A stretch of DNA of 64,000 bases from Dehalococcoidales bacterium (GTDB lineage: Bacteria; Chloroflexota; Dehalococcoidia; Dehalococcoidales; UBA2162), in the NCBI GenBank assembly GCA_034432095.1, contig DAOUCV010000021.1, positions 4,262-68,261 of the forward strand. The letters run 5' to 3'. A program made the translations under genes and the position numbers. This document shows, one piece after another, positions 24,840 to 43,423 of this stretch; the stretch's first letter is position 1, and every line of letters starts with the position of its first letter. The notes under the pieces were generated by a model that was not told the origin of the DNA, made no database searches, and saw nothing but the letters and a program-made list of their open reading frames with translations.

Positions 24840-25922
24840 ATGAAGTACGTGGATTTTGAAAGTCCTGAACAGTACCAAGATATCAAATATGAACCAGGGA
24901 GGGTCACTCGAATAATACTGAATAGGCCACGATATCTGAATGCCATCAGCCACCCCATGTATGCCGAGATCGACGATGCCTTCGAACGCTTCGCCGCTGA
25001 CCCAGAGTGCAAAGTAGCTGTCATTTCCGGAGCGGGCCCATGTTTCTCCGCTGGGCACGATGTTATGGGGCTTACACCAGAGTCAGCACCCATGTTGGCA
25101 GACAGGAGAACTCCTGAGCAATTAATGAAGCAATTCGGGTCCGAAAAGAAGGTCTGGCTACAGTATGACGAGGAACACCGTTACTTCTTGTTCGATTTGC
25201 ACCTCTATAAATTGCACCGCATTCCAAAGCCGACTATCGCCATGGTGCACGGGTATTGCATATATGGGGGATTTGCCCTAGCCGGAATAATGGACGTAAT
25301 CTTTGCTTCCGAGGATGCCTTGTTCCTGGGCGTGACCGGTCAGACTGACCCAGGAACATGGGACATGGGTGTGCGTAAAGTGATGGAGGTCATGTTAGAG
25401 CACCGCTTTATGACTGCCCGTGAATGCTACGAATATCACTTTATCAACCGCATCTTCCCTGACTACGAAACTCTGGAGAGGGAGACCCTCGCCTTTGCAG
25501 ACCGCGTCGCTGACAATGTTGGAGAGGGGAATCCAAAGATAGCTTTATATCATACGAGAGACATCCAGGGCTACACCAGGGCATTGGAGGAAAACTGGGC
25601 ACGCAGTGACTGGAAGAAAGGGGGGCGCATTCCATATTCCGGGTCGGCACAACACGGTATGAGATATGAAGGAAGAGGCGTTGCTCGGGCCCCTCGGGCT
25701 TTGGCCAACCTAAAGGCAAAGCTCGAGTCAGAAGGAAAGGAAGTGCCCAAGCTGGTCCTTGAGGCGTTAGCTAGAGCCAGTTCTAGGGATGATAAGGCAG
25801 TCTGGCAGAGGGCACTCCATCAGGAGTGGAGAGAGAAAGAGCGGATAGCCAGAGCGGAAAAAGAGGCTAAGGAATGGGAGGAAAAGGAGAGAGGAAAAAG
25901 TAGTCGCAAAGCCTCAAAATGA
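24840..25922 (+). CDS. enoyl-CoA hydratase/isomerase (crotonase) family protein with a Lys/Glu-rich C-terminal tail
   Basis: ILNRPRYLNAIS...VAVISGAGPCFSAGHD. RBS AAAAGGAGAG. About 90 aa of charged low-complexity tail (EKERIARAEKEAKEWEEKERGK). Confidence 0.8.
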   Translation: MKYVDFESPEQYQDIKYEPGRVTRIILNRPRYLNAISHPMYAEIDDAFERFAADPECKVAVISGAGPCFSAGHDVMGLTPESAPMLADRRTPEQLMKQFGSEKKVWLQYDEEHRYFLFDLHLYKLHRIPKPTIAMVHGYCIYGGFALAGIMDVIFASEDALFLGVTGQTDPGTWDMGVRKVMEVMLEHRFMTARECYEYHFINRIFPDYETLERETLAFADRVADNVGEGNPKIALYHTRDIQGYTRALEENWARSDWKKGGRIPYSGSAQHGMRYEGRGVARAPRALANLKAKLESEGKEVPKLVLEALARASSRDDKAVWQRALHQEWREKERIARAEKEAKEWEEKERGKSSRKASK

Positions 25923-26113
25923 GCTCCTGAACTCAGAAAACAGAGCCGCGCAAAGAAGAGGGTTAATGAACTGCCTGGGGACTACCATTAGGGTGCTCTA
26001 GCAATACCTCAAGGGCGGCTCTGTTAAATAAGAGAGAAACTAGGTGAAAGGCTAATTTGTTGTATAGGGGTTACATCTTAAACTATCTGATGTAGGGAAA
26101 GGAGGGAGTGGGG

Positions 26114-27394
26114 ATGAGTCAAAAGAAAGAGGTTGGCAACTCAAGAAGCTCGTCCGCGAATGCTAGCAATGGTGCCCTTTCTGGGCTGAAAGTTAGAGAG
26201 ATAGGTAACAATGTGGCTGTAGCCTATTGTTGCAAGCTTTTGGCTGACATGGGTGCAGAGGTGATAAAGGTGGAGGACCCTGCGACCGCCAACCTTGATA
26301 GACAGGAAGGGTCTATCTGGTGTGATGACAGGGAGGGTGGGGATGTGGGATGCTTATTCGCCTATGTGAACAGTAACAAGCTTGGGGTCACTTTGAACCT
26401 GGAGACTGAGTTAGGGAAAAGCATACTGTATGACTTGGTGCGGGATGCTGATATTCTGGTGGAAGGTAACTCCCCACGAAAAGCTAAGGAGATGGGATTG
26501 GGCTACGAACGTCTCAGCCAGATTAATAATATGCTGGTGGTGACCTCAATAACACCCTTTGGCCAAACTGGCCCATATCGGGAGTACAAAGCCTATGCTA
26601 TTAATTGTAGCGCTGCAGGCGGTGCTAGCAAGTCAATAGGGGAGCTCGGCCGCGAGCCGTTGTCTGTACCGCTGTATCAGCCCCATTTTCAGAGCGGCCT
26701 TATGGCAGCAGCCGCGACGCTTGGGGCTATCCTTGCTCGCGACTCTATTGGTCGTGGGCAACATATTGATATCGGTGAGACTGAGGTTTGGCTTACACAT
26801 CTGGCTGGGTATGGACTGCATGGTTTTGTTTTCTACGAGCAAAAAGTGATAAGAAAAGGCCGTACAATGGCGGGCCTCTTCCCCAACGGGATTCTTGAGT
26901 GTAAAGACGGAGAAGTTTCCTTTAGCACCAACACAGGGCGCCAGTGGAAACACTTTTTGGAGATCGTGGGTGATGGTGAGATACCGAGCTGGTATTCTTC
27001 AAATCCTGTATATACTAACACAAACTTTCAGGAGCTCCATAGAAAGTATGGGGACGAGCTGAGAGCCCGTTTGGAGCCACTATTGAAGCGTAAAACGAGG
27101 GATGAACTCATGGCGCTTGGCCAGGAGAAGCATGTCGCTCTTGCCCCCCTCCGAACCATCGCCGAAGTATTGGAAGACCCTCATCTTAACGCGAGGGGGT
27201 ATTTTGTGGAGGTGGACGACCCCCGGTTGGGTAGAGTTAAATTCCCCGGGCCGCCTTTCAGACTTGCCAAAACTCCTTGCCGTATTGAGCGTCCAGCGCC
27301 CGTGCCAGGCCAACATAACGAGGAGGTCTACTGTGGCCGTTTGAGCTACTCAAAGAAATATTTAACCGAGCTCAGGCGACAGGGGGTAATATAA
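26114..27394 (+). CDS. family III CoA-transferase homologue, copy 3 (His at the catalytic Asp position)
   Basis: LLADMGAEVIKVE, TSITPFGQTGPY and PGQHNEEV. The block aligned to GTDFMSG of copy 6 reads QPHFQSG. ATG 26114 follows AAGGAGGGA. Confidence 0.85.
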   Translation: MSQKKEVGNSRSSSANASNGALSGLKVREIGNNVAVAYCCKLLADMGAEVIKVEDPATANLDRQEGSIWCDDREGGDVGCLFAYVNSNKLGVTLNLETELGKSILYDLVRDADILVEGNSPRKAKEMGLGYERLSQINNMLVVTSITPFGQTGPYREYKAYAINCSAAGGASKSIGELGREPLSVPLYQPHFQSGLMAAAATLGAILARDSIGRGQHIDIGETEVWLTHLAGYGLHGFVFYEQKVIRKGRTMAGLFPNGILECKDGEVSFSTNTGRQWKHFLEIVGDGEIPSWYSSNPVYTNTNFQELHRKYGDELRARLEPLLKRKTRDELMALGQEKHVALAPLRTIAEVLEDPHLNARGYFVEVDDPRLGRVKFPGPPFRLAKTPCRIERPAPVPGQHNEEVYCGRLSYSKKYLTELRRQGVI

Positions 27395-27583
27395 ATATGG
27401 GGAGTTGTCGAGCGGAGGCCGTTTAAAAATGAAGGGGTATCTGGCGGCTTTTCAGGGTGTCTCTGGAGCTGGAAGATGTCAAAACTCACCAAAAAGGTGG
27501 AGGTGAAGCGTTTTCAAATTGGCCGAAAATGAAGCTAAAATCAAAACTAAACGGCCTCGAGCGGATAAGGAGGTGATAATCAT

Positions 27584-28798
27584 ATGGAAAAGATGATGTA
27601 TCCGCTCAGTGGTTTTCGGGTGGTGGATTTTGGATGGGTAGCTGCAGGCGCTGCCGCCGGCAAGATTTTGGCCGATATGGGTGCCGAAGTGATTAAGGTG
27701 GAGACAAGGACGCGCTTAGATACTACCAGATTCTCGCCAGACAATGTTGAACGGTCTCCGGAGACCGACCCAGGGTTTCACGCCATGAATCGCAATAAGT
27801 TAGGCATTACTGTAGACATGACCAAACCTGAGGGTGTTGAGCTATTGAAAAAACTGGTAAAAGTCAGTGACGTAGTACTTGAGAATTTCGCTCCCGGAGT
27901 AATGAAAAGGTTTGGCTTGGATTATGAGTCTCTACGCCGTGAAAAGCCTGACCTCATTATGGTCTCGATGCCAGGCCTTGGCAGCTGGGGTCCCCAATGG
28001 AACACGATTGCCTATGCGCCGGGTTTAGCTGCCCTCTCTGGACTAACGGGGATGATTGGGTACTATGGCGGAAGAGCCGTGGGCATACACGTAGCATATT
28101 CAGATTTCAATGCTGCTACCAACGCCGCTCTGGCAGTCCTTGCTGCTCTAATCCACCGTAGGCGTACCGGAGAAGGACAATATATTGAGGTGGCACAGCT
28201 TGAGGCCTTAGTCAGCTGCCTCGGCGAGGCGCTGTTGTATTATCAAGTGACAGGCAGGAACCCCGGGACTCAGGGCAATCGACATCCTACGATGGCACCG
28301 CATAACAATTATCGGTGTAAGGGCGAGGACAAGTGGGTATCAATTGCGGTGAAGACAGAGGAAGAATGGAAAAAGCTAGTCCAGGCAATGGGTGACCCAC
28401 CTTCACTGCGAGCGGAGATATTTAACAGCAGGGAGGGCAGGCTTAGTCACCTAGAAGAGTTGGACAGCATCATTACCTCCTGGACGGTTAACTATACGCC
28501 AGATGAGGTCACTGATATCCTCCAAAGTGTTGGTGTAGCCGCCTGTCCCGTTATGGATATCGGGGAGTGTTACCTTAACCCTCATTTCCAGGAAAGGGAA
28601 GATTTTACTTGTGTGGAGCACCCTGCCACAGGGACTGATTTTATCGTTAATCTGCCTTGGAGAATGAGCGAGACGTCAGGCGGAATCTATCGCCCCGCGC
28701 CCATGCTGGGTCAGCATAACCAGTACGTTCTGGGAGATATCCTGGGCTTATCAAAAGACGAGGTCGCAGCTCTCGAGGAGAAGGGGGCACTAAAATAA
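27584..28798 (+). CDS. family III CoA-transferase, copy 4
   Basis: FRVVDFGWVAAGAAAGKILADMGAEVIKVE, Asp block AYSDFNAA, and LGQHNQYVL. Confidence 0.9.
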   Translation: MEKMMYPLSGFRVVDFGWVAAGAAAGKILADMGAEVIKVETRTRLDTTRFSPDNVERSPETDPGFHAMNRNKLGITVDMTKPEGVELLKKLVKVSDVVLENFAPGVMKRFGLDYESLRREKPDLIMVSMPGLGSWGPQWNTIAYAPGLAALSGLTGMIGYYGGRAVGIHVAYSDFNAATNAALAVLAALIHRRRTGEGQYIEVAQLEALVSCLGEALLYYQVTGRNPGTQGNRHPTMAPHNNYRCKGEDKWVSIAVKTEEEWKKLVQAMGDPPSLRAEIFNSREGRLSHLEELDSIITSWTVNYTPDEVTDILQSVGVAACPVMDIGECYLNPHFQEREDFTCVEHPATGTDFIVNLPWRMSETSGGIYRPAPMLGQHNQYVLGDILGLSKDEVAALEEKGALK

Positions 28799-28851
28799 AA
28801 GGCCAAAGTTTCGCCAAGCCTGATCAATAAAAGATAAAGAGGAGGGAAAAG

Positions 28852-30057
28852 GTGCAACAGCTACCTCTTGAAGGCGTAAGGGTTGTTGATTTTACTACAG
28901 CCCAAGCCGGCGCTCATTGCACCCAGTGGCTCGGGGTGATGGGGGCAGAAGTTATTAAGATTGAGAGTAGGGTGCGCCCCGATGTTACCCGGCTCTCGTC
29001 TCGAGCTGAGACGCTGGACCAGAGCGCGTCGTTTGTTTCATTCAACAGCGGTAAGAAGAGTATTACCCTTAATATGAATCAGCCCAAGGCGGTGCAGATT
29101 GTCAAGGAGCTGGTCAAGCTCAGCGACGTAGTAACTGAGAACTTTGGCGGAGCAACGATGGAGCGCTGGGGGTTGGGATATCCGGAATTGAAGAGGCTTA
29201 AACCCGATATCATTGTCTTCGCAACCTCAGGTTACGGCAGAACCGGTCCCCGCAAGGAGTCCCCCGCCTTTGCCCCTGTTGTTGATGCCTTCTCCGGGTT
29301 ACTCTCGGTGAACGGTTATGTTGGCGGCATTCCCAATGTTGTAGGAAACAGGGGGTGGACAGATGCGATGGCGGCTGTGCACGGAGCGTTTGTTATTCTG
29401 GCTGCTCTGTATCACCGCTCAAACACAGGTGAGGGACAATACATAGACGCATCCATGACCGAACTGAATGCTAACGTACTCGGTGAACTGGTTATTGATT
29501 ACGCTATGAATGAGAGAGTGGCTCAACCTGTAGGGAATCGGGATAATATTATGGCTCCTCACGGTTGCTACCGTTGCCTTGGAGAAGACAAATGGGTAGC
29601 TGTTGCGGTCTCAAGTGAGCAGGAGTGGCAAGCCTTCTGTAATGCCCTGGGCAATCCCGAGTGGACAAAGAAAGAAGAGTTCAGTGATGGGCTGAGTCGG
29701 CTGAATAATCAGGAGGAACTGAACAGGCTGATAGAAGAATGGACAAAGCAGCATAGTCATTACGAAGTAATGGAGATATTGCAGAAGGTAGGCGTTATGG
29801 CAGGAGCGTGCCTTACTTTGGAGGAGTTAAAGAGTGACCGTCAATTGAGGGAGAGGGAGTTCCTGCTCGACATTGAGCAACCACTTATCGGGAAGCTATG
29901 CTTGTCCCGCATGCCTTGGAGGCTGAGCGGTACTCCTGGAGGAAATTACTACCGCGCCCCATTACTCGGCGAGCACAATAATTATGTTTTTGGTGAGTTA
30001 CTAGGCATGCCCGAGCAGGAGATAAGACGGCTGGAGGAAGAGAAAGTCATTTACTAA
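28852..30057 (+). CDS. family III CoA-transferase, copy 5
   Basis: VRVVDFTTAQAGAHCTQWLGVMGAEVIKIE, Asp block GWTDAMAA, and LGEHNNYVF. GTG start after GAGGAGGG. Confidence 0.9.
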   Translation: MQQLPLEGVRVVDFTTAQAGAHCTQWLGVMGAEVIKIESRVRPDVTRLSSRAETLDQSASFVSFNSGKKSITLNMNQPKAVQIVKELVKLSDVVTENFGGATMERWGLGYPELKRLKPDIIVFATSGYGRTGPRKESPAFAPVVDAFSGLLSVNGYVGGIPNVVGNRGWTDAMAAVHGAFVILAALYHRSNTGEGQYIDASMTELNANVLGELVIDYAMNERVAQPVGNRDNIMAPHGCYRCLGEDKWVAVAVSSEQEWQAFCNALGNPEWTKKEEFSDGLSRLNNQEELNRLIEEWTKQHSHYEVMEILQKVGVMAGACLTLEELKSDRQLREREFLLDIEQPLIGKLCLSRMPWRLSGTPGGNYYRAPLLGEHNNYVFGELLGMPEQEIRRLEEEKVIY

Positions 30058-30062
30058 TCAGC

Positions 30063-31307
30063 TTGGGAATAACGACTGGAAAAAGAGCGACTGGCATGAA
30101 CAGGCAAGCACTCACCGGTTTAAAGGTTCTCGAATACAGCCAGTCCGTGGCTGGTGATTACTGCGGAAAGCTTCTGGCTGATTTAGGTGCTGAGGTAATT
30201 AAGGTGGAAGAGCCTGGCTCTGGCGATAAGGTCAGAAGCTGGGGCCCCTTCCCGAAGGACATACCTCACCCGGAGAAAAGCGGCATGTTTCTGTTGCTTA
30301 ACACCAATAAGCTGGGGGTGACTCTCAATCTTAGGACGGCGACAGGGCTGAAGATTTTCAGGGAACTGGTACAGCGGGTTGACATTTTGGTGGAGAGCAA
30401 TCTGCCCCGTGAGATGAAACAGCTCGGTCTCGACTATGAAAGCCTCCACAAGCTCAATCCTGCGCTGGTGATGACCTCAATTACCGCCTTCGGTCAGACA
30501 GGACCCTACCGGGACTATAAAGGCTGTGACCTTATCAACTACAGTATGGGTGGAGGTGCTTATTACAACCCCGCGGAGGGGGTGGATAACGTTGAGGAGT
30601 TCCCCCCGTTAAAGGTGCCAGCCCACGGCACCGATTTTATGAGCGGGGCTAGCGCCGCGGTAAGTACAATGTCGGCGGTTATTGCCCGGAAGACATCTGG
30701 TCTGGGACAGCATGTGGACGTTTCGCAGCAAGAAGCTCTGACTTCCGTAGCGCGTAACCAAATTATTTCCTATTCCCAGACAGGTATGCTTACCTTCAGT
30801 AGGGCGAAACGAGGCGGGTCCAATCTGTTTCCCTGCAAGGACGGCTATGTGTGCCTGTATCTGATGGAGGATCTATTTTGGCCAAGCCTAAAGAAGATGC
30901 TGGGCAATCCAGATTGGACTAAGGAGGAGTGGTGCCAAGACCCCGCCAGACGCGCCCAGAATGCCAAAAAGTTCCATGAAGTATTGGTAGAGTGGACGAG
31001 TCAGCACACAATGGATGAGGTGTACCAGGCAGCGATTGCTAATCGCATTCCCTGCTCCCCGGTTCGCAGCGTAAAAGACCTGTTCACTGATGAGCAGTTG
31101 ACGGCACGGGATTTCTTTGTGGAGATTGACCACCCAGCAGCGGGCAGGCTTAAATATCCTGGAGCACCCTACAAACTTTCGGCAACCCCCTGGACAGTAA
31201 AGCGTCCTGCCCCTCTCCTCGGCGAGCACAATGAGAAAGTGTACTGCCAGATGCTAGGCTACACTCGGCAGGATTTGGTGAAGATGAGGGAGACCGGGGT
31301 AATCTAG
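30063..31307 (+). CDS. family III CoA-transferase, copy 6
   Basis: LLADLGAEVIKVE, TSITAFGQTGPY, Asp block GTDFMSG, and LGEHNEKVY. The start is uncertain (TTG 30063 or ATG 30096). Confidence 0.9.
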   Translation: MGITTGKRATGMNRQALTGLKVLEYSQSVAGDYCGKLLADLGAEVIKVEEPGSGDKVRSWGPFPKDIPHPEKSGMFLLLNTNKLGVTLNLRTATGLKIFRELVQRVDILVESNLPREMKQLGLDYESLHKLNPALVMTSITAFGQTGPYRDYKGCDLINYSMGGGAYYNPAEGVDNVEEFPPLKVPAHGTDFMSGASAAVSTMSAVIARKTSGLGQHVDVSQQEALTSVARNQIISYSQTGMLTFSRAKRGGSNLFPCKDGYVCLYLMEDLFWPSLKKMLGNPDWTKEEWCQDPARRAQNAKKFHEVLVEWTSQHTMDEVYQAAIANRIPCSPVRSVKDLFTDEQLTARDFFVEIDHPAAGRLKYPGAPYKLSATPWTVKRPAPLLGEHNEKVYCQMLGYTRQDLVKMRETGVI

Positions 31308-31548
31308 CAGACCATCAAGTCTAAGGAGGGTGGGACCGGCTCGGCAATCCTCTCCGCGGCTTTTGTCCGCCGCTAGAGCCAGGTGATTTTGCCCCTGAGC
31401 CACATCATTAAGACTCAGCTCCAATAGCCCCTACGCACGTGTCCTCGGTTTCATAAGTATTCTTTCCCCTAAGTGACCGGCGTCCCTTATTTCGGCTTTC
31501 CCATTCACAAGGTTAAGTTTGATGATAGGGGGATTTTTAATCATGCCC

Positions 31549-32517
31549 TTAAGCCTGGATACTGCACATAAATCCGTACGATTCTACCAGCCGTTTCATA
31601 TCCTGTAAGACACTGTCCGGAACGAGGGGAATGTGAGCTATAGGGTAGGGGCGGTTTAAGCTATCGTATCTTGTCTTCCCCAGATGGTGCAAAGGTATAA
31701 GGTGCACCTCAACTACTGAAGATAAACCCTGAGCAAACTCACAGATAGCTCTGATATTCTCTTCTGAGTCGTTGTAACCCGGGATTACCGGTACCCTTAT
31801 ATAGAGGGGGATATTTCTCTGGGAAACCGCCCGAGCGTTACTCAGAATTAGCTTGTTTGAGACGCCTGTCAATTCCTTATGTCTTTCTGGGTCCATATGC
31901 TTTATGTCCCAGAGAAAGAAATCGATGTAGGGCAACATCTGCTCAATGCTTGCCCAGGGGACATGACCGCAGGTATCAATTCCGACATTGATACCTTCTT
32001 CTTTCAAGCCCTGAAGCAATTTCAGCGTGAAGTCCGGGTTCAATAAGGGCTCTCCCCCCGAAAGGATGACTCCACCACCGGAGTGTCTATAAAAAGCTAT
32101 ATCCTTTTTCGCCTCCTCAAGCAACTCTTCAACAGTCATAGGTCGTCCCAGAAGCTTTATGGCTTCTGAGCTGCAGACTTCAGCACACTTGCCACAGTTG
32201 TTGCATAGAGACCGGTCAATACTTATTGTCCCATCTGCTAAGCTAATAGCATTCAGGGGGCATGCCGGGACACACTGGTCACAATGGATACATTTGCTCG
32301 GGTAGATAGCAATCTCAGGTTCAGCCTTTTGAGACTCTGGCGTCGAGCACCACAAACAGCGCAATGGGCACCCTTTGAAGTAGATGACGGTTCGTAGTCC
32401 AGGGCCATTATGAATAGTCATCCTGCTTATGGTCAGAACAAGCCGCTTTTGAGTAGCACTTTTTGACCTCATGATGGCCTGGTTCCAAATGCTGTTACCC
32501 GGTAAATGACGGGACAT
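31549..32517 (-). CDS. glycyl-radical enzyme activating enzyme (radical SAM, with two auxiliary ferredoxin-type clusters)
   Basis: GPGLRTVIYFKGCPLRCLWCSTPE (CX3CX2C), CIHCDQCVPACP, CNNCGKCAEVC and GGGVILSGGEP. ATG 32517 lies 1 nt after the GRE stop; the ORF is open to 32592, and ATG 32472 is an alternative. Confidence 0.85.
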   Translation of the reverse strand: MSRHLPGNSIWNQAIMRSKSATQKRLVLTISRMTIHNGPGLRTVIYFKGCPLRCLWCSTPESQKAEPEIAIYPSKCIHCDQCVPACPLNAISLADGTISIDRSLCNNCGKCAEVCSSEAIKLLGRPMTVEELLEEAKKDIAFYRHSGGGVILSGGEPLLNPDFTLKLLQGLKEEGINVGIDTCGHVPWASIEQMLPYIDFFLWDIKHMDPERHKELTGVSNKLILSNARAVSQRNIPLYIRVPVIPGYNDSEENIRAICEFAQGLSSVVEVHLIPLHHLGKTRYDSLNRPYPIAHIPLVPDSVLQDMKRLVESYGFMCSIQA

Positions 32518-35443: not shown

Positions 35444-37297
35444 CTAGTATCCCATAGACTTCTTCAGGTCCTGGTCAATCCAGCTGTACAGGTAGTAGTC
35501 AGCTCCGTTCCACAAACCTATTGACGTTTCACCGCTGTAACCCTTTAACCACGGCTGCCAGGCCCTGTACACATATGGTGTTGCGATCGGTATTATATAG
35601 CTCTGGTCAACAATGTATGGATAGACCTCCTTGATCAATCTGGCCTCTTCGGCCTTGTCGAACCAAGCGGCGGTGACATCCTCAAATGCCTTATCAATAC
35701 GTGGGTCATAAATATTGCCAGCGTTCACGGGCATTCCCGTCCTCCAAACGTAGAACTCGTATGGTGCCTCAGTCATCGTGTTCTGGAAGGCACATCCTGG
35801 ATATGTCCTCTTCGCGCCCACCAGCATAGACATATAGATACCATAGTCCAGCACTTGAATTTCCGCGTCAACGCCGATTTTAGCCCAGTCGGCTACAATT
35901 ATGGACAAGAAGTCCGCCTGGCCCAAGGTGCAAATTATACTGGTCTTAAAGCCATTGGGATAACCGGCTTCAGCCAGGAGCTGCTTTGCCTTATCCGGGT
36001 GATACTCAAATAGCTCCCTGGCTGACTGGGGATACTCCTCAAACGGGATGAACCACTGCTTAAGTTCTGGCAGTATTGGATAGGCGAATGTCTCAGCACG
36101 ACCCTTATAGTATTGGTCTTTTATTACCTGCCTATCTATAGCCATAGATAAGGCCCGCCGGACCTTGATGTCACTAAAAGGCGTCTGGTCCACCCTCATG
36201 TATATCGTCGAGGTCGCTTCAGCCAGATACTCTCGCCATTTCAGTTGTGGGGCAGTCCTCTTTAAAGACTCTGCAGTGTCAAATGCAAACTCCTCTTTGC
36301 CCAAACCGTCAACCGCGCCGGTGCGCAGGGCGGCTTGTCGGGTAGACGCATCTGGTATGACCAGTATCTTAGCGCCATCCGGATAGGGCATGGTGTCCTC
36401 TGGAAAAAGAGGATGCTTCCGCCAGTAGTTAGGATTCCTGACAAAGGTTGCCACAGAACCTCGGACGTAATCCGTCAGTATATATGGCCCAGTACCAACG
36501 TTATTTCTCCAATCACGCATGTCTCCGTATTTATCAATCACTTCATGCGGAATTACAAAGATACAATCACCAACTCTAAGCCATACTCTTGAGAACCATC
36601 CCGGCTTAGTCTTCACGACAACCGTCCACTTGTCAGGTGCTGTTACCGATTCTACAGACTGGTCATAGGGACAAAACATAGCTTGCGGACTCATGGGGTT
36701 TTTCCACATGCGCAGGAGGGAAAACACCACATCCTCAGCGTTCACCTCCCTACCACCCACCAGTCGGCTCGCCTCGCTGGCCGGGTTAAGTGCAAAGTGA
36801 ACCCCTTTGCGCATGTGGAGGACAATGGTGGTTTGATCCGGCCACTCCCAGCTTTCAGCCAAAAGGGGAGCCGGATAGAATCGGGGCTCCGAAGAACGGA
36901 GAAAAGGGAATTCACCAGTGCCTGATGGCCCCCTTGTATAGTCACCGGTGAGTGGTTCCTCACAAGTGAGAGAATTGGCAGTACACTGTACATTCAGGCG
37001 GTAAGCATCATCAAAGTGCTCTGGGTCTGATGCCAACGCCCACTTCAATATTCCGCCATATTTAGGCTTTTCCACCAATTTCTCAACTACTGTCCCATCC
37101 CCTTTCTTCAGCCTCAACTTCACCATCTCCGGTCCCGCTTCCTCTTCGACTGCTTCTTCCACTGGTTTTTCTTCCGCTACTACTACTTCTGCTTTCCCGA
37201 CCTCTACTTTTTTCGCCGCTTCTTTCGGGGCACAGGATGCTATCACCAGAGATAGCACCATCAGACTGCTCACCACCACCCACACGACCTTTTTCAT
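35444..37297 (-). CDS. ABC transporter substrate-binding lipoprotein, family 5, paralogue 2
   Basis: MKKVVWVVVSSLMVLSLVIASCAPKE lipobox, an acidic linker, and C-terminus DLKKSMGY. RBS GAGGAGG. Confidence 0.85.
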   Translation of the reverse strand: MKKVVWVVVSSLMVLSLVIASCAPKEAAKKVEVGKAEVVVAEEKPVEEAVEEEAGPEMVKLRLKKGDGTVVEKLVEKPKYGGILKWALASDPEHFDDAYRLNVQCTANSLTCEEPLTGDYTRGPSGTGEFPFLRSSEPRFYPAPLLAESWEWPDQTTIVLHMRKGVHFALNPASEASRLVGGREVNAEDVVFSLLRMWKNPMSPQAMFCPYDQSVESVTAPDKWTVVVKTKPGWFSRVWLRVGDCIFVIPHEVIDKYGDMRDWRNNVGTGPYILTDYVRGSVATFVRNPNYWRKHPLFPEDTMPYPDGAKILVIPDASTRQAALRTGAVDGLGKEEFAFDTAESLKRTAPQLKWREYLAEATSTIYMRVDQTPFSDIKVRRALSMAIDRQVIKDQYYKGRAETFAYPILPELKQWFIPFEEYPQSARELFEYHPDKAKQLLAEAGYPNGFKTSIICTLGQADFLSIIVADWAKIGVDAEIQVLDYGIYMSMLVGAKRTYPGCAFQNTMTEAPYEFYVWRTGMPVNAGNIYDPRIDKAFEDVTAAWFDKAEEARLIKEVYPYIVDQSYIIPIATPYVYRAWQPWLKGYSGETSIGLWNGADYYLYSWIDQDLKKSMGY

Positions 37298-37413
37298 CTT
37301 GAGTTAACCTCCTCTCTTGGCACTGTAATGTCCTTGACTATTATCCTTTACCATTTCAGTTGTCTTGTCTCAGTAATGCACCTCCTTTGCCAAGAGATTG
37401 TCTCCATTAAACC

Positions 37414-37462
37414 AAAAGGACACCGGCAACCGCCATAATACTTAGCGGTTCTGATGTCCTTT
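37414..37462 (-). promoter_or_regulatory. terminator-like hairpin inside the SBP2 5' leader (candidate attenuator)
   Basis: The sense strand reads AAAGGACAtcaGAACCGC...GCGGTTgccggTGTCCTTTTggttt. The inner helix is identical to the SBP1 copy, and the outer helix is changed on both arms. Confidence 0.5.
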
Positions 37463-37521
37463 ATTGCATCGTCCTACCTCTCCGTCTTTAGGTGATTTTT
37501 ACCTTTTCTACTTGTGGCACC

Positions 37522-37550
37522 AGTTTAACCTTGTTCTCGGGATTTGTCAA
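37522..37550 (-). promoter_or_regulatory. sigma70-like promoter of SBP2
   Basis: On the minus strand: TTGACA (37550-37545), 17-nt spacer, TAAACT (37527-37522). Confidence 0.5.
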
Positions 37551-37802
37551 GCAGAGTTAGTCCCCGAACGGCCGAGCAATTCTGGCTTCGACTGCACAAA
37601 ATGAGTAAACGTTTCCTCCCCCTTCTGTCAATAATCACCCCTGCTGCCTTGATAATGTGGCGGTAAGGCTCACAGGCGCTCGGTGAGCCGGTGGGCATTG
37701 TGGCCGGTTTTGGATGCGCGCAAACAAATTGTAGAAAATAAGCTAGAAAGGTGCTATGATAAAAGACGGTGTCAAAAAAAGCCAGAAGGAGGTAGTATTT
37801 AA

Positions 37803-39029
37803 ATGGAGTTTAGAATGTCGCGAGAGCAGGAACTCTTCAAGAGGGCTTTGCGAGAGTACTGCCAGAAGAATGTTGAGCCCAGGGCCAGAGCCATAGACGA
37901 AGCCGAGGCTGGCATCCCTGATGACATCATAAAGGGGTTAGCTGAACTAGGTGTTTTCGGCTGCACTATCCCCGAGAAGTATGGCGGTTCGGCTTTGCCG
38001 GGTGAGGAGATGCAATATGCCAACATCGCCATCCAGGAATTGGGCTATGCTGAACTGAGCATGTCTCTCCCGGTTTACGCGTTGCTTACCATTGGTTGGG
38101 GAGGGATGTTCCTGAGTCTTTATGCTAACGAGGAAGTGAAAAGGGAAATATTACCCAGAATAGCTTCGGGTGAGTGGTCCTGGGGAATCAACGTTACTGA
38201 ACCAGGGGGAGGCTCGGATGTAGCCGCTATCAAGACTACAGCCATCAGAAAAGGAGACAAGTTCATCATAAATGGTGAGAAAGCCTATATCAGTTCGGTA
38301 GCCGAGTGTCAGGTGAGGGGAGGGGGACACTGTAGTCTCTTCGTTACCGACCCTGCCAAGGGTATCAGGGGCGGGATGACCCTTTTTGCCACAATACCAA
38401 ACCAGCTTAAGGGTATAACCAGCACCACCTACAAGGATATGGGGCGGATGGGTCTCTCTACCGGGGGATTCACCTATAAAGACACGGAGATTTCGGATAA
38501 GTATATCCTTGGCGAGGAAGGGAGGGGCTTCTACCGTTGTATGGAGGGCTTTAATATCGCCAGAGCCGTGGTTTCGGCTGCCTGTCTGGGTGGTGCTGAG
38601 AAAATGCTGGAAATAGCCGTTGAGTACGCTAGGCAGAGAAAGGCATTTGGTCGGCCGATAGGCAAGTTTCAAGGTGTATCTTTCATTCTAGCTGAGCTCC
38701 AGACCCGTCTGGACATGCTCAAACTCCTGCTGCAAAAGGGATGCTGGATGATAGATAAGTACTACAGCGACCCGGGCAGCTTCACCCAGAAAGAGATAAA
38801 TGTGGTCATTGCCCAGTGCAAGTGGCTGGCTCCCGAGCTGGCGGTGGAGGTTGCCAGGAGAGCCATCCAGATACTCGGTGGCTTTGGCTATACCAAAGAA
38901 TCTCCCCTCGAGATGGGCATGAGAGGGGCTATGTCCTACGTTGCCGGGGCTGAAGGAGCCGAGAATATCATGAAGCAGATTATTGCCAGAGACGCTTTTG
39001 GTGAAGAGTTCGTCGCCACCCGTCTATAA
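37803..39029 (+). CDS. acyl-CoA dehydrogenase
   Basis: 408 aa with an ACAD-typical N-terminus (REQELFKRALREYCQKNVEPRARAIDE...GIPDDIIKGLAELGVFG) and C-terminal QILGGFGYTKE. RBS AGGAGG. A TGcTATGAT extended -10 lies at 37751-37759. Confidence 0.9.
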   Translation: MEFRMSREQELFKRALREYCQKNVEPRARAIDEAEAGIPDDIIKGLAELGVFGCTIPEKYGGSALPGEEMQYANIAIQELGYAELSMSLPVYALLTIGWGGMFLSLYANEEVKREILPRIASGEWSWGINVTEPGGGSDVAAIKTTAIRKGDKFIINGEKAYISSVAECQVRGGGHCSLFVTDPAKGIRGGMTLFATIPNQLKGITSTTYKDMGRMGLSTGGFTYKDTEISDKYILGEEGRGFYRCMEGFNIARAVVSAACLGGAEKMLEIAVEYARQRKAFGRPIGKFQGVSFILAELQTRLDMLKLLLQKGCWMIDKYYSDPGSFTQKEINVVIAQCKWLAPELAVEVARRAIQILGGFGYTKESPLEMGMRGAMSYVAGAEGAENIMKQIIARDAFGEEFVATRL

Positions 39030-39071
39030 GGGGGTTAGCCGAAATCTCCGAAAATTCAGCGAGGATAATGC

Positions 39072-40361
39072 GTGGAGAAGTTTGATGTCATCGTAGTTGG
39101 AGGTGGGTTGGCGGGACTTTCAGCCGCTTACTGTTTGGCTAAAGACGGAGCTGGAGTTCTGGTTGTAGAGAGAGGGGATTACTCAGGAGCCAAGAATGTT
39201 ACCGGTGGCAGACTTTACCTGAATCCGGTTAGAGAGGTCCTACCAGATATCTGGGAGCAGGCTCCTCTTGAGAGATATGTCGCCAGAGAGAGAATAAGCC
39301 TGATGGGGGCAAGCTCCTCGGTCTCCATTGAGTTATCAAGCGAAAGGTTCAGGCAGAAACCCTATCACAGCTATACCATCCTCCGTGGCAGGTTTGACCG
39401 ATGGCTTGCGGACAAAGTTGCCAAAGCCGGCGGTATGGTGGTAACGAAGAACAAGGTCGATGACCTGATATTAGAGGATGGAAAGGTCAAGGGGATAGTC
39501 GCCGGGGGAGACAATGTCTATGCCGATGTAGTCCTTGCCGCCGATGGCGTTATGTCTCAAATGGCGGAGAAGGCGGGCTTGAGGGCAAGCCGTAACCCCA
39601 GGGACTTTGCCGTCAGCGTAAAGGAGGTTATTGAACTTGCCCCTCAAACGATAGAGGCACGGTTCAATCTGAAAGAGGGTGAGGGGCTGGCAGAAACATT
39701 CGTTGGTTCCCTGACCAAAGGGATGTTCGGGGGAGGCTTTTTATATACCAATATTAGTAGCCTCTCTCTCGGCATCGTGGTAAGAATACTGGACTTGATG
39801 GCAAAAGACCCTCCCGTTGAATTGCCCCAGCTACTGGAGGACTTCAAGCTCCGTCCTGAAATCAGCCGTCTCATCGCCGGGGGAGAGACCATTGAATACT
39901 CCGCTCATGTGATTCCTGAGGGTGGCATTAACACTCTGCCTCGTCTTTATTCTGATGGCATCTTGCTCGCCGGGGATGCGGCTGGTTTTGCCCTCAACAC
40001 CGGGCTCACGGTTAGGGGGATGGAGTTTGCTATAGCCTCCGGTGTTCTGGCAGCCAAAGCCATCAAAATAGCCCGCAGCAAAAATGATTTCTCCAGTGAG
40101 TCTCTCTCCAGTTATGAAAGCCTGCTGAGGGAAAGTTTTGTCTTAAAGGACCTGCATACTTTTAAGAATGCCCCCCGCTTCTTTGACAATCCCAGGCTCT
40201 TTACCCTTTATCCCCAAACGGTCTGCGATGTTATGGAAAAACTTATGCTTATCGAGGACAAACCGAAGAAGAAAATGTCAAGCACGGTGTTCCGTGAAAT
40301 CAGAAGCAAACTGGGTCTTCTTCCAGTATTGAAGGACGCCTTGCGAGCTTTCAGGATATAA
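39072..40361 (+). CDS. fixC: FAD-dependent oxidoreductase FixC (ETF:quinone oxidoreductase-like)
   Basis: FDVIVVGGGLAGLSAAYCLAKDG dinucleotide fold, 429 aa. Followed by fixX, etfB and etfA. Confidence 0.85.
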   Translation: MEKFDVIVVGGGLAGLSAAYCLAKDGAGVLVVERGDYSGAKNVTGGRLYLNPVREVLPDIWEQAPLERYVARERISLMGASSSVSIELSSERFRQKPYHSYTILRGRFDRWLADKVAKAGGMVVTKNKVDDLILEDGKVKGIVAGGDNVYADVVLAADGVMSQMAEKAGLRASRNPRDFAVSVKEVIELAPQTIEARFNLKEGEGLAETFVGSLTKGMFGGGFLYTNISSLSLGIVVRILDLMAKDPPVELPQLLEDFKLRPEISRLIAGGETIEYSAHVIPEGGINTLPRLYSDGILLAGDAAGFALNTGLTVRGMEFAIASGVLAAKAIKIARSKNDFSSESLSSYESLLRESFVLKDLHTFKNAPRFFDNPRLFTLYPQTVCDVMEKLMLIEDKPKKKMSSTVFREIRSKLGLLPVLKDALRAFRI

Positions 40362-40363
40362 AA

Positions 40364-40642
40364 ATGGCGGTAAACATAAAAGCAAAACTGGGTCTGGATA
40401 CCATCAAGGCTGATACCCAAAAGCACATCAGCATTGACCGAAAGATATGTAAGGGCTGTAAAGAGCGTTATTGTCTCTATGTATGCCCGGCAAAGGTCTA
40501 TACCTTGAACAGGGATGGTGAGATTGAGCTGGACCTCGATGGATGTCTGGAGTGTGGAACTTGCAAGATTGCTTGTGTGAGAAATGCGGTGGACTGGAAT
40601 TACCCCAGGGGCGGGTTCGGCGTCCAGTACAAGTATGGCTAG
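40364..40642 (+). CDS. fixX: ferredoxin-like protein FixX
   Basis: 92 aa with CKGCKERYCLYVCP and CLECGTCKIAC. Confidence 0.85.
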   Translation: MAVNIKAKLGLDTIKADTQKHISIDRKICKGCKERYCLYVCPAKVYTLNRDGEIELDLDGCLECGTCKIACVRNAVDWNYPRGGFGVQYKYG

Positions 40643-40669
40643 TAAAACCAGAAAGGAAGGGCAAAGAAT

Positions 40670-41452
40670 ATGGACTTAATTGTATGTTTAAAACAGAATG
40701 TTGATATGAAACAGATTCGGATTAAAAAGGATACCAGAGAGCCGGTATTGGAGGGGCTGCCGCTCGTGTTTGGCGATATGGACAAGAACGCCCTTGAGGA
40801 AGCGGTAAGAATTAAGGAGAAGGAGGGGGGCAAGGTAATCGCACTATCCGTAGGCTCGCCAAAACTCAGGGATACCATTAAGGATGCCCTGGCTGCCGGA
40901 GCCGATGAAGCCGTTATTCTCATCGACCCGCTGTTCAGTAACCTCGATTCGGCGAGAACGGCTAAGGTCTTGGCTAAAGCCATAAAGAAAATTGGAAAGT
41001 ACGACCTTATCCTTCTGGCTGAGGGCTCCACCGACAATTACTCCGGTCAGATGGGCTCAAGATTGGCTGAGCTTCTGGATTTACCGGCGATTACCTATGT
41101 CCGACAATTGGAGCATACTGGTAGTAAAGTGAGGGCGACCCGAAATATGGAGGAGAGTTTTGAGGTCGTAGAGGCTGAGCTCCCGGCGTTGATTACCGTC
41201 ACCAGCGGCATAAACGAGCCGAGGATTCCCTCCTTAATGCAGATTTTGCGGGCGGCAAAGAAGCCGGTACAGGAATGGAAGAGTTCTGATATCGGTATTA
41301 CTGACACAGAGCTTGGAGATATGGATACGGAAATACTGAGTAATCTAGCCCCGGTGGAACAGAGAAAGAAGGTCATCTTCGAAGGTAAGCTGGATGAAGA
41401 TATTGTTAGTCTGGTCAATTCGCTTATCAAGGAGGGAGTACTGGGAGGCTAA
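40670..41452 (+). CDS. etfB: electron transfer flavoprotein beta subunit (FixA/EtfB)
   Basis: IVCLKQ...DKNALEEAVRIKE...DLILLAEGSTDNYSGQMGSRLAELLDLPAITYV. Confidence 0.9.
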   Translation: MDLIVCLKQNVDMKQIRIKKDTREPVLEGLPLVFGDMDKNALEEAVRIKEKEGGKVIALSVGSPKLRDTIKDALAAGADEAVILIDPLFSNLDSARTAKVLAKAIKKIGKYDLILLAEGSTDNYSGQMGSRLAELLDLPAITYVRQLEHTGSKVRATRNMEESFEVVEAELPALITVTSGINEPRIPSLMQILRAAKKPVQEWKSSDIGITDTELGDMDTEILSNLAPVEQRKKVIFEGKLDEDIVSLVNSLIKEGVLGG

Positions 41453-41454
41453 CT

Positions 41455-42411
41455 ATGAGGGAGATGCTAGTTTTTTGTGAGAAAGATGAGGTTGCCTTTG
41501 AGCTTTTGTCCTGGGGTAGCAAGGTTAAAGACAGCCTGAAGGCTAAGCTTTCAGCGGCAGTCTTGGGGAAGGGTGGACAAGAAAAGGTAACTGACTACCT
41601 TGCCTACGGTGCTGATAAAGTATATCTAGCCAAGGACGCCTTGCTCACCGACTTCTACGCTGATGTCTACACCGAAGCCCTTTGTCAGATAGTGAGTAGC
41701 TATGGGCCGGAGATTATACTCATCGGTTGCACACGGAGAGGTAAGGAGCTGGCGCCCAGGGTAGCTCAGAGATTGGGAGCGGGCTACGTTAGCAGTGCCA
41801 CTGGCATCCAGGTCAAAGATGGAGAATTATTGATAGATAGATACATGCTGGGGGGAAACACCGTGTCGTCCCAGCTCATCAAGACAGCAAAAAAGGTGGT
41901 CTCGGTGATGCCGAAGACCTTTGAGCTGGGTAAGAAAGAAACGAGGCAGGGCGAAGTTATTGAGGTTCCTCTGAAGCTTAAAGAGCCGAGGCTTAAAATA
42001 GTGGAGAAAAAGCCAAAGGGAGGTGAAACGGTCAGTCTGGAGGAAGCCCAGACTCTGGTCTGTGTCGGCAGAGGGCTGAATAAGAAGGAGGACCTGCCCC
42101 TTATTGAAGCGCTGGCGAAAGCCTTGAAGGCTGAGATAGGCGGTACTCGACCACTTACCCACGAATGGCAATGGTTATCCGAGGAGAGGGAGGTGGGTCT
42201 ATCAGGTAAGAAGTGTAAACCCCGCCTCTACGTCTCCATCGGAATTTCCGGCCAGATTCAGCATACGGTGGGGATTCGCGATGCCAAAATTATCGTAGCC
42301 ATCAATAAAGACAAGAACGCCCCCATATTTGACATAACTGACTACGGGATAGTGGGAGACCTTTATCAGGTATTACCCAAGCTCACCGAGAAAATCCAGA
42401 GCGCCTCGTAG
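41455..42411 (+). CDS. etfA: electron transfer flavoprotein alpha subunit (FixB/EtfA)
   Basis: VGRGL...GGTRPL...GLSGKKCKPRLYVSIGISGQIQHTVGIRDAKIIVAINKDKNAPIF. Confidence 0.9.
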   Translation: MREMLVFCEKDEVAFELLSWGSKVKDSLKAKLSAAVLGKGGQEKVTDYLAYGADKVYLAKDALLTDFYADVYTEALCQIVSSYGPEIILIGCTRRGKELAPRVAQRLGAGYVSSATGIQVKDGELLIDRYMLGGNTVSSQLIKTAKKVVSVMPKTFELGKKETRQGEVIEVPLKLKEPRLKIVEKKPKGGETVSLEEAQTLVCVGRGLNKKEDLPLIEALAKALKAEIGGTRPLTHEWQWLSEEREVGLSGKKCKPRLYVSIGISGQIQHTVGIRDAKIIVAINKDKNAPIFDITDYGIVGDLYQVLPKLTEKIQSAS

Positions 42412-42432
42412 GCTGTTTAGCCCGGGTCATTT

Positions 42433-42466
42433 AGAGAGGGCAGGGGATGAATCCCCTGCCCTCTCT
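42433..42466. terminator. perfect 15-bp stem / 4-nt loop hairpin between convergent etfA and the crotonase gene
   Basis: agagagggcagggga tgaa tcccctgccctctct. Confidence 0.65.
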
Positions 42467-42571
42467 TGCTGTCGGGGGCACACTCTAGCTAATCAACGGA
42501 CTTGAACAGCCGGGTAAGCCCGCCCGGCGTTCTCGGCTTATAGATGCGGACGGCATTACCACCAGCCGCTC

Positions 42572-43423
42572 TTACTTATATTTTTTCTCTGACCAGTGTC
42601 TTTCCCCCGGTGCACCCTTAAATTGTGGTGCTCTCTTCTCGATGAAAGACATTACTCCTTCTTTCATGTCGTCACGAAATTGGGTCATCAGTATCTCATC
42701 GGCTTGCATTTCAGCCCGCCCGACGGCTTCTATGCTCATCGAAAGGCCTTCATTCACCAGCCTCTTAATCAAACTTATTGCCTTGGCCGGGCCCCGGGCG
42801 AGCTTTTCGGCAAATTCCTTTACCCTCTCCTCAAATTCATCGGCGGGATAGACGTGGTTCACCAGTCCCCACTCCTGGGCTTGCCGGGCATCAATAAGCT
42901 CGCCCAGCATCAGCATTTCCTTGGCCCGGTGTGGACCTATAAGCCGCGGTAGCAACCATTGCCCGTAGCCGGAAGAGACGAACCCTCTCCTGATGAAGAA
43001 TTCACCGAAAGAGGCATTCTCGGAAGCCAATATTATGTCGCTCTCCAGCACAATGCTTAAGCCCCCGCCGACTGCCACACCATTAACGGCGGCTATCACC
43101 GGCTTGGGTAAATCCCATAACTCAAGACCAATCTCCCAGGGTGACCCGCTGGGAGCGCCCTCCTCTCCTCTGGGTCCACCTCTAAATTCCCCCCGGACCG
43201 CTTGAGCCTGTTCGCGCACATCCCTCCCGGCGGCAAAGCCGCGCCCTTTCCCGGTTACCACCATCACTCTCACTTCGTCATCGTAGCGTACCTGTCTAAT
43301 TGCCCGGTGGAATTCTACGTGTAACGCCTGGCTTAATGCGTTCAGCACCTCAGGACGGTTAAAAATTACCCAGGCTACGCCATTCTCTTTTTTGAAAATT
43401 AGGTCTTTATATTCGTATGCCAT
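42572..43423 (-). CDS. enoyl-CoA hydratase/isomerase family protein
   Basis: VAWVIFNRPEVLNALS...VMVVTGKGRGFAAGRD...PVIAAVNGVAVGGG. Confidence 0.85.
   Translation of the reverse strand: MAYEYKDLIFKKENGVAWVIFNRPEVLNALSQALHVEFHRAIRQVRYDDEVRVMVVTGKGRGFAAGRDVREQAQAVRGEFRGGPRGEEGAPSGSPWEIGLELWDLPKPVIAAVNGVAVGGGLSIVLESDIILASENASFGEFFIRRGFVSSGYGQWLLPRLIGPHRAKEMLMLGELIDARQAQEWGLVNHVYPADEFEERVKEFAEKLARGPAKAISLIKRLVNEGLSMSIEAVGRAEMQADEILMTQFRDDMKEGVMSFIEKRAPQFKGAPGERHWSEKKYK

Follow-up and report, generated by a model that had tools for sequence, protein, structure and literature searches.

A serinyl radical enzyme lacking the eliminase glutamate, and its CoA-transferase neighbours, in an uncultivated Dehalococcoidales bacterium

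What reaction might be started by a radical enzyme encoded among CoA-transferase, crotonase and acyl-CoA dehydrogenase genes in a Dehalococcoidales bacterium? The genes form a block at positions 24840-43423 of a 64,000-nucleotide stretch of contig DAOUCV010000021.1 (assembly GCA_034432095.1); the whole stretch is referred to here as the window. An earlier note on this DNA had likened the block to the bss/bbs logic of anaerobic fumarate addition and beta-oxidation, with a glycyl radical enzyme (GRE) of the BssA type. Judged by its sequence, the enzyme is a serinyl radical enzyme (SRE) and not a GRE. It belongs to a sub-clade in which the glutamate of the eliminase CXE motif has been lost, and its relatives recur beside CoA-transferase pairs resembling those of benzylsuccinate degradation. 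The explanation we favour, at about even confidence, is that this uncultivated, Dehalococcoidia-type anaerobe has here a catabolic locus centred on the SRE, in which a non-eliminase radical step would be followed by CoA activation.

The radical enzyme, the residues discussed below and the activase lie at the following positions of the window:

32519..35047, minus strand: SRE, 842 aa, pyruvate formate-lyase (PFL)-like barrel and radical domain (Pfam PF02901, PF01228)
32597..32599, minus strand: codon AGC, Ser817 at the radical-glycine site (RVAS for RVAG)
32972..32974, minus strand: Lys692, on predicted strand 688-693 (group comparison; AlphaFold2 (AF2) model)
33608..33616, minus strand: Cys loop C478-S479-A480 (alignment to CutC, GCVEP, and HpzG, GCVET)
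31549..32472, minus strand: radical-SAM activase, 307 aa by the Joint Genome Institute (JGI) gene call (TIGR02494, 343 bits against a cut-off of 174)

The C-terminus of the enzyme reads MVRVAS817TVAYF (R814-V-A-S817-T), which in the HMMER alignments stands in register with CutC (IVRVAGYSAYF) and HpzG (VRVAGYTAFF), placing Ser817 opposite the radical Gly. The RVxG[FWY] fingerprint of canonical GREs is absent from the enzyme, and no second glycyl-radical fingerprint was found in a six-frame motif scan. Because RVAS817 stands in place of RVAG, the enzyme was assigned to the SREs; the supposed GRE carries a serine codon, AGC, where the radical Gly was expected. Both domains, the PFL-like ten-stranded barrel and the C-terminal radical domain, were recognized by Pfam (PF02901, 531 bits; PF01228, 84 bits), Cys478 on the Cys loop is invariant and a radical-SAM activase is encoded alongside, and no NCBIfam equivalog cut-off was reached by the SRE. 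The identical 842-aa protein is recorded on six contigs, including JGI 3300022548 and SRR5216256, and is therefore not an assembly artefact. The activase carries CX3CX2C (in CPLRCLWC), two CX2CX2CX3C motifs and GGEP, and of 82 dereplicated related loci, 40 have an activase no more than 2.5 kb from the SRE.

To define the family, the 120 closest proteins were taken from a collection of 5.8 billion sequences; these are 57-90% identical to the window SRE. In an alignment of 118 full-length sequences, the window protein included, all 117 full-length relatives covering the radical site have Ser there. Relatives in the genome collection (54-89% identical, almost all from Dehalococcoidia metagenome-assembled genomes (MAGs)) likewise have Ser, encoded by AGC or AGT, except in tandem pairs whose first member has Ala. 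Matches ranking behind these, GREs that are 32 to about 40% identical, have Gly; the one exception, from Bathyarchaeia, has Ala.

The name aminoacyl radical enzymes (AAREs) was given to homologues of GREs whose radical site holds Ala, Ser or Thr by Fu et al. (J Am Chem Soc 2024, PMC11528403), who observed by electron paramagnetic resonance a C-alpha serinyl radical formed on DaSRE of Dethiosulfatibacter aminovorans with its activase. Table S2 of that paper lists SRE HEY95974 from Dehalococcoidia isolate W403. The closest relative in our genome collection, at locus L001, is 89% identical to the window enzyme and comes from Dehalococcoidia MAG W403, a match made through the isolate name and not through the accession; MAG AS06rmzACSIP_159, the source of locus L015, is also in Table S2. 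Given the 89% identity to the L001 protein, the window enzyme falls within the published SRE class, and with the class already published the locus is not categorically new. With DaSRE the window enzyme shares Ser for the radical Gly (an AGY codon, one step from GGY), the conserved Cys, an adjacent cognate radical-SAM activase and a PFL-like fold. It differs in the Cys loop, which is GCTES, with CXE, in DaSRE and C-S-A here; identity between the two is roughly 35-47%, over the readable stretches of supplement DNA damaged by optical character recognition only. The enzyme lies outside any clade of known function.

Several related loci carry more than one enzyme of this kind. The Ser copy (RVASY) at L010, L013 and L014 is immediately preceded by an Ala copy (RVAAY, codon GCC), with a single activase in L013 and L014 and none detected in L010. 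These Ala copies share 52-60% identity with the window SRE, which places them within or beside the SRE family; Fu et al. placed alanyl radical enzymes in a separate clade (PMC11528403). A Thr-type paralogue with a CIE loop lies near the SRE of a metagenome locus, L140. SRE paralogues (56-68% identical to the window enzyme) occur in two, three or more copies per MAG, each with its own neighbourhood, as in PMMG01 (fen_1014; L008, L009 and L019), JAZDPP01 (L010 and L014) and JBKQML01 (L005 and L012). This multiplicity is a paralogue expansion like those of catabolic families in Chloroflexota.

The second distinguishing feature of the enzyme is found at its Cys loop, which reads G-C478-S-A480-T at the place where CutC, HpzG and a 2025 propanediol dehydratase have GCVE. 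In the alignment to CutC and HpzG the thiyl-radical Cys is kept and A480 falls opposite the glutamate, leaving C478-S-A480 in place of the CXE motif of GRE 1,2-eliminases and isomerases. A review reports that every eliminase and isomerase retains this motif and that Glu491 is an essential residue of CutC (PMC13450708). For comparison, the window enzyme and 15 relatives (at least 66% identity) were set against 99 full-length relatives keeping the Glu. All 16 members of the Glu-less group, whose loop is C-S/A-A/S/G in place of CXE, have A, S or G at position 480, and the 99 others all have E. Position 692 is K in all 16 and A in 86 of the 99; positions 689 and 669 are W and Q in the Glu-less group and Y at both in the other 99. 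Positions 206 and 210 are non-acidic in the Glu-less group, compared with D206 in 84 of the 99 and mostly D or N at 210. D482, the only nearby acidic candidate, is conserved in just 9 of the 16; conserved residues around the pocket region are His200, His215 and Glu493.

The pocket of the Glu-less sub-clade thus seems to have switched from acidic to basic, which argues against a hydroxyl-assisted elimination and for an anionic substrate. Residue offsets would place Lys692 within about two residues of the sulfonate-anchoring Arg of HpsG (R672) and IslA (R678), and we consider it a candidate anion-binding residue. A sub-clade without CXE and with Lys692 appears to be unreported in the literature searched.

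Some other Glu-less members have unusual arrangements of their own. A Gly-type GRE (RVAGYSAYF) lies immediately upstream of the Glu-less SRE in L082 (7460-9880) and L086 (3625-6042). Its Cys loop, AGCLDAC, has Asp where CXE has Glu, no activase is found nearby and aconitase-like large and small subunit genes lie alongside; the L082 copy is frameshifted. These GRE and SRE proteins may form a hetero-complex. Apart from this sub-clade, the SREs P0103, P0113 and P0115 show a third version of the Cys loop, G-C-T-V-C-C, which is without Glu and with two extra Cys, and recalls the two-Cys loop of PFL.

The other genes of the block, and the flanking genes that enter the argument, are as follows:

17748-18905 and 19225-20448, minus strand: two more family III CoA-transferases (Pfam)
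21229-23188, plus strand: two Opp/Dpp-type ABC permeases (Pfam)
24840..25922, plus strand: crotonase ECH1, 360 aa, first gene of the ECH1-CoAT1-4 unit (Pfam ECH_1)
26114..27394 (open reading frame (ORF) start 26108/26114), plus strand: CoAT1, family III CoA-transferase (Pfam CoA_transf_3), resembles 9fn0 chain A
27584..28798, plus strand: CoAT2, family III CoA-transferase (Pfam), resembles 9fn0 chain B, catalytic Asp kept
28852..30057, plus strand: CoAT3, family III CoA-transferase (Pfam), resembles 9fn0 chain B, catalytic Asp kept
30096..31307, plus strand: CoAT4, family III CoA-transferase (Pfam; start per JGI gene call), Asp kept
35444..37297, minus strand: SBP_bac_5, family 5 solute-binding protein (SBP5), directly upstream of the SRE (Pfam)
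37803..39029, plus strand: acyl-CoA dehydrogenase (ACAD) (Pfam)
39072..40361, plus strand: FixC-like protein (Pfam; NCBIfam FixC/YdiS-type models 409-418 bits, under their cut-offs)
40364..40642, plus strand: FixX-like protein (Pfam)
40670..41452, plus strand: EtfB (Pfam)
41455..42411, plus strand: EtfA (Pfam)
42572..43423, minus strand: crotonase ECH2, its own transcription unit (Pfam ECH_1, 196 bits)
43735..46276, plus strand: Fe-S subunit and tungsten-type aldehyde:ferredoxin oxidoreductase (AOR), outside the block (Pfam AFOR_N, AFOR_C)

Every gene named in the earlier note was recovered, at the positions given there, from the ORF listing and by Pfam, and so were the absences that it recorded. 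The ORFs scanned across the window included neither a thiolase nor a 3-hydroxyacyl-CoA dehydrogenase, and their sole match of the short-chain dehydrogenase/reductase (SDR) type is an NAD-dependent epimerase/dehydratase-family protein at 60270-61265. Nor was there a candidate GRE small subunit beside the radical enzyme: the flanking small ORFs are not conserved, a 37-aa ORF that follows the activase lacks Cys, and the 396-bp gap between the SBP and SRE genes, about 200 bp in L001, holds only ORFs of 69 aa or fewer. Features that had gone unmentioned are Ser817, the two further CoA-transferases, the Fe-S/AOR pair and the presence of three SBP_bac_5 genes; the window holds six CoA-transferase and three SBP5 genes in total.

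The best match of CoAT1 in the PDB was chain A of 9fn0 (145 bits), succinyl-CoA:(R)-benzylsuccinate CoA-transferase, BbsEF. CoAT2 and CoAT3 matched chain B best (213 and 221 bits, with next matches at 178 and 194, respectively), and CoAT4 scored 167 bits with chain A, 147 with chain B and 173 with SUGCT. By likeness to the 9fn0 chains, the gene order is A-B-B-A. One alignment column, which by analogy with formyl-CoA transferase (Frc Asp169) we take to hold the catalytic Asp, reads TD in CoAT3 and CoAT4, PH in CoAT1 and QA in 9fn0 chain A; the surrounding residues are QPHFQ in CoAT1 and NQAYR in chain A. An Asp-less subunit is accordingly present in CoAT1/CoAT2, as it is in BbsEF, whereas CoAT3 and CoAT4 both keep Asp. 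In NCBIfam the CoA-transferases lie nearer to models for formyl-CoA, succinate-glutarate and mesaconate transferases than to CaiB. On these alignments, the four CoA-transferases resemble two BbsEF-like pairs of adjacent, unlike family III subunits, an arrangement that appears to be new, and the BbsEF comparison made before stands, with CoAT1-3 matching benzylsuccinate CoA-transferase chains best.

The neighbourhood was compared by tblastn across 56 dereplicated SRE loci (flanks of at least 5 kb) and 60 Gly-GRE control loci, drawn from genome and metagenome collections. An adjacent A/B CoA-transferase pair was found at 19 of the 56 SRE loci and none of the controls (Fisher p = 1.5e-7), an AOR at 15 compared with 2 (p = 4e-4) and a crotonase at 9 compared with none (p = 1e-3). 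No electron transfer flavoprotein (ETF) or FixC was found at any of the 56 loci or the 60 controls. In the pairs examined, the Asp is always present in the B-like subunit and usually absent from the A-like one. The density of CoA-transferases reaches its maximum 2.5-7.5 kb from the SRE and then drops; that of AORs and crotonases is highest directly beside it. Fu et al. reported no informative neighbourhood common to AAREs (PMC11528403), in contrast to the benzylsuccinate-CoA-transferase-like pairs, AORs and crotonases that recur here. This recurrent context of SREs appears to be unreported in the literature searched.

Individual loci display the same association. In L001 a single strand carries SBP-SRE-activase-AOR-ECH1-CoAT A-B-B-A, with the AOR-family gene directly after the activase; in the window the same two units are convergent, so that ECH1-CoAT1-4 stays beside SBP-SRE-activase despite an inversion. 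The two extra CoA-transferases and two permeases at 17748-23188 also lie near the SRE in L001, at 77-82% identity. Locus P0007 reads SRE-activase-PrpD-ECH-CoAT-CoAT-AOR, and L116 has on one strand MarR followed by DctPQM-SDR-AOR-SRE-activase-CoAT A-CoAT B-ECH-CoAT-ECH-MaoC. The tripartite ATP-independent periplasmic (TRAP) transporter in L116 implies a carboxylate substrate, and the substrate of the SRE is probably a carboxylate. A Glu-less SRE in L083 heads SRE-thiolase-DUF35-ACAD-MaoC-ACAD-CoAT-SDR, a near-complete bbs-like set. The functionally linked core is probably SBP-SRE-activase with ECH1-CoAT1-4, and the AOR is probably a member.

The SBP gene upstream of the SRE in L001 is on the same strand and encodes a protein 81% identical to that of the window. 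The earlier note had called this SBP dedicated. With three SBP_bac_5 genes in the window it is not obviously so, and across the related loci the density of SBP5 genes shows no fall with distance from the SRE, and therefore looks like genomic background; SBP5 as a dedicated transporter was ruled out as a family-wide rule.

In the sequence of events that we favour, a carboxylic acid would be taken up and the activase would set a C-alpha radical on Ser817, by analogy with the distant homologue DaSRE. The radical would move from Ser817 to Cys478, which would abstract a hydrogen atom from the substrate. Since the CXE glutamate has been lost, positions 206 and 210 are non-acidic and Lys692 has been gained, we infer that the step is not a hydroxyl-assisted elimination; it is probably another radical change, in which a C-C or C-X bond is made or broken on an anionic carboxylate. 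The product, perhaps once the AOR has oxidized an aldehyde, would be a substituted dicarboxylic acid, and heteromeric CoAT1+2 and CoAT3+4, presumably with succinyl-CoA, would make its CoA thioester for processing by ECH1. ACAD-FixCX-EtfBA and ECH2, which are not conserved partners, may oxidize the resulting acyl-CoA in this organism.

Several observations weigh against this explanation. The position of Lys692 in the pocket is deduced from residue offsets and a predicted strand alone, and the confidence of the AF2 model is low over the radical domain (residues 792-842). The contexts of other Glu-less members vary (L082, L086, L085). A/B pairs occur beside both Glu-type and Glu-less SREs, and are therefore uninformative on the chemistry of the Glu-less sub-clade. 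The controls come mostly from other phyla, and because Dehalococcoidia are rich in these families, the CoA-transferase enrichment is in part confounded; same-phylum controls amount to four Chloroflexota Gly-GRE loci, with no CoA-transferase in 55 kb. The SRE and CoAT operons of the window are convergent and separate, with no common regulatory motif. Finally, according to a June 2026 review, the function of no AARE has been elucidated (PMC13450708).

Of the alternatives, the one that survives best is that the enzyme is a 1,2-eliminase or isomerase still, with the Glu replaced by another residue or by the substrate carboxylate and with an oxo-acid product passing through the AOR to a dicarboxylate and on to its CoA ester. 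We consider this unlikely, although similarity points in its direction. A phmmer search of the PDB gave 344-424 bits for solved 1,2-eliminases, compared with 300 for MasD and 243 for TutD. Foldseek of the AF2 model (predicted TM-score 0.84) listed propanediol dehydratase, HpzG, glycerol dehydratase, CutC and HypD first (TM 0.84-0.85, 29-32% identity; eliminases as a whole, TM 0.82-0.85 and 28-32% identity), with ranks 1-44 ahead of MasD and benzylsuccinate synthase at 45-48 (24-27% identity). In sequence and predicted fold, then, the SRE is nearer to the 1,2-eliminases than to the X-succinate synthases. It further resembles the eliminases (CutC, B12-independent glycerol and propanediol dehydratases, HypD, HpzG, IslA) in the single Cys on its loop and in an activase with two extra ferredoxin-type clusters. 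The three conserved residues near the pocket region (His200, His215 and Glu493), the enrichment of AORs with their closest approach to SREs, and the eliminase-like chemistry proposed for AAREs by Fu et al. (PMC11528403) would all suit this alternative.

What counts against it is the active site. All characterized eliminases and isomerases keep CXE, and here the Glu and the radical Gly are missing and no NCBIfam equivalog cut-off is reached; D482 is too poorly conserved across the 16 members to stand in, and the pocket has lost acidic residues while Lys692 has appeared. The locus differs as well, with CoA-transferases, crotonases and an AOR in place of the microcompartment or aldehyde dehydrogenase genes of eliminase loci. 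Separately, a segment of about 30 residues in the AF2 model (105-136; window 34640-34735) has a pLDDT below 50. Residues of about 97-153 are unaligned to solved GREs, whose main alignments begin at about 134-158, and segment 105-136 may be a family-specific insertion.

A second alternative retains the function suggested by the earlier note, an X-succinate synthase that would add a C-H substrate to fumarate, followed by a bbs-like route through CoA-transferase, ACAD and hydratase. This is attractive in several respects: as in bss/bbs, a radical enzyme would start the pathway, with BbsEF-like A/B pairs, an ACAD and a crotonase nearby. Loss of CXE together with a basic Lys692 could fit an enzyme that binds fumarate or a derivative of succinate; neighbours such as PrpD and the aconitase-like proteins act on substituted di- and tricarboxylates, and the Glu-less SRE of L083 is accompanied by a full bbs set (thiolase, DUF35, two ACADs, MaoC, CoA-transferase and SDR). 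We nevertheless judge it quite improbable. The enzyme lies outside the BssA clade, nested in a family that otherwise keeps CXE, and in both sequence and fold its matches to eliminases outscore those to BssA-type enzymes and MasD; it has Ser for the radical Gly, and no beta or gamma subunits were found. Uptake genes for polar solutes, SBP5 here and TRAP in L116, stand in place of a hydrocarbon logic and speak against a hydrocarbon as the substrate. The block itself lacks the BbsCD-type SDR dehydrogenase and the BbsAB thiolase of the bbs operon, and its ACAD/ETF genes are not conserved partners. The BssA-type assignment was therefore dropped on the grounds of the Ser residue, the eliminase-closer sequence and fold and the missing small subunits. 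Of the bss/bbs comparison as a whole, the bbs-like downstream part, with its BbsEF-like pairs, was retained, and the bss-like identity and the Fix module were not.

A more speculative variant, which we hold to be somewhat less probable again, is that the CXE-less SREs are a second, independent lineage of radical enzymes forming or cleaving C-C bonds on succinate or fumarate derivatives, that is, "hydroalkylases" without small subunits that act on polar carboxylates in Dehalococcoidia. Were this true, the products of the CXE-less SRE would be channelled through benzylsuccinate-CoA-transferase-like enzymes, and the reaction would be the first assigned to any AARE.

The remaining alternative is that there is no pathway here, the genes having been brought together by chance in a paralogue-packed catabolic genome, with the Glu-less protein perhaps a non-catalytic partner of another GRE; adjacency would then say nothing about the partners of the SRE. 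The ACAD-Fix unit fits such a picture. FixC, FixX, EtfB and EtfA are encoded together, as expected for the FixABCX-type ETF noted previously (the FixC score being under cut-off), in a unit divergent from the adjacent SBP gene. Its proposed place in the pathway was not borne out, as ETF and FixC are missing from all 56 related loci and from within 10 kb in L001; with no ACAD-FixCX-EtfBA beside other SREs, its presence in the block is probably coincidental. In E. coli, CaiABCD/FixABCX and YdiO-YdiQRST combine an ACAD-type enoyl-CoA reductase, a family III CoA-transferase and a crotonase with a FixABCX-type module. The block has the same components (ACAD, FixC, FixX, EtfB, EtfA, crotonase and family III CoA-transferase), but FixC scores under the equivalog cut-offs, the CoA-transferases are not closest to CaiB and ACAD/Fix is not conserved with the SRE. 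A carnitine or CutC-like elimination of trimethylamine, prompted by this gene set, was rejected, as the CXE Glu and an equivalent of Asp216 are missing and ACAD/Fix is not conserved. ECH1 and ACAD gave only generic matches in the PDB and hence no information on the substrate.

Transcriptional organization is also compatible with chance. Gene orientation divides the block into at least four transcription units. Promoter-like sites were seen before ECH1 (24578-24607) and ECH2 (43588-43560), in a promoter and terminator scan whose 23 hits were not above expectation (18.3 ± 5.1 in shuffled sequence). When intergenic regions (those before ECH1, SBP-ACAD, ECH2-Fe-S and others) were searched for a common operator or palindrome, the only matches resembled ribosome-binding sites. 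There are six CoA-transferases and three SBP5 genes in one window, SBP5 density is flat, and in L082 and L086 the Glu-less SREs do sit in tandem with a Gly-type GRE without an activase. Chance is nonetheless hard to reconcile with A/B pairs at 19 of 56 SRE loci and none of 60 controls, with their distance peak, or with the persistence of ECH1-CoAT1-4 beside the SRE across a rearrangement. One-strand strings in L116 and P0007 join SRE, activase, CoA-transferases, ECH and AOR, and Cys478, Ser817 and the activase are intact and conserved. We rate chance juxtaposition, too, as quite unlikely. The block of the earlier note fared unevenly in the cross-genome comparison: its CoA-transferases and ECH recur, and its ETF/FixC part does not.

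Beyond the block, several genes of the window merit description. Between the permeases and ECH1, orf292 (23393-24271, minus strand, 292 aa) has no Pfam or NCBIfam match and an invariant C-terminal C-x2-C-x4-C. It has at least 1232 homologues, the best 120 of which are 62-100% identical and mostly from Dehalococcoidia-type metagenomes. Its AF2 model (predicted TM-score 0.81) weakly resembles an eIF2B/ribose-phosphate-isomerase-like fold, with no confident match. As an SRE-specific accessory it was rejected: it recurs near several SREs, but the family of at least 1232 members is also found away from them. A homologue lies once directly upstream of a CCG-domain protein, and orf292 might be a LutC-like partner of CCG proteins.

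On the plus strand at 43735-48844, the Fe-S subunit and AOR are followed by two HGD-D family proteins, which in NCBIfam score best with the benzoyl-CoA reductase models BzdN (312 bits against a cut-off of 454) and BzdO (206 against 449). Neither an ATPase nor an activator subunit was seen among the ORFs scanned in the window. These genes may make up a distinct module for the reduction or dehydration of CoA esters. A 2-hydroxy-acid module is hinted at by a GlcD-like FAD oxidase and its CCG/Fe-S partner (48947-51599, minus strand) together with a LarA homologue (58936-60210, plus strand; 448 compared with a lactate racemase cut-off of 460, and near malate-racemase models); such an oxidase/CCG pair also lies directly upstream of the Glu-less SRE in L085. 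The third SBP5 gene (51821-53659) adjoins genes on the minus strand at 53874-58972 for an unusually long FtsX-like permease (1170 aa) and, after it, two ABC ATPases. At 13570-15110 (plus strand), a methyltransferase with an N-terminal RRM_1 fusion precedes a DUF1847 protein, an odd combination in a bacterium. No RNA element turned up when the whole window was scanned with Rfam and for tRNAs.

The window and about 80 related loci offer testable leads on the function of AAREs. In Dehalococcoidia, the context of SREs (CoA-transferases, AORs, crotonases and one TRAP transporter) points to carboxylic acid substrates and dicarboxylyl-CoA products. The Glu-less sub-clade, having dropped the eliminase-defining glutamate and acquired a lysine, is predicted to carry out a different reaction. 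SREs are common in peat, sediment and subsurface metagenomes and in Dehalococcoidia MAGs, and may help Dehalococcoidia to attack recalcitrant organic acids without oxygen.

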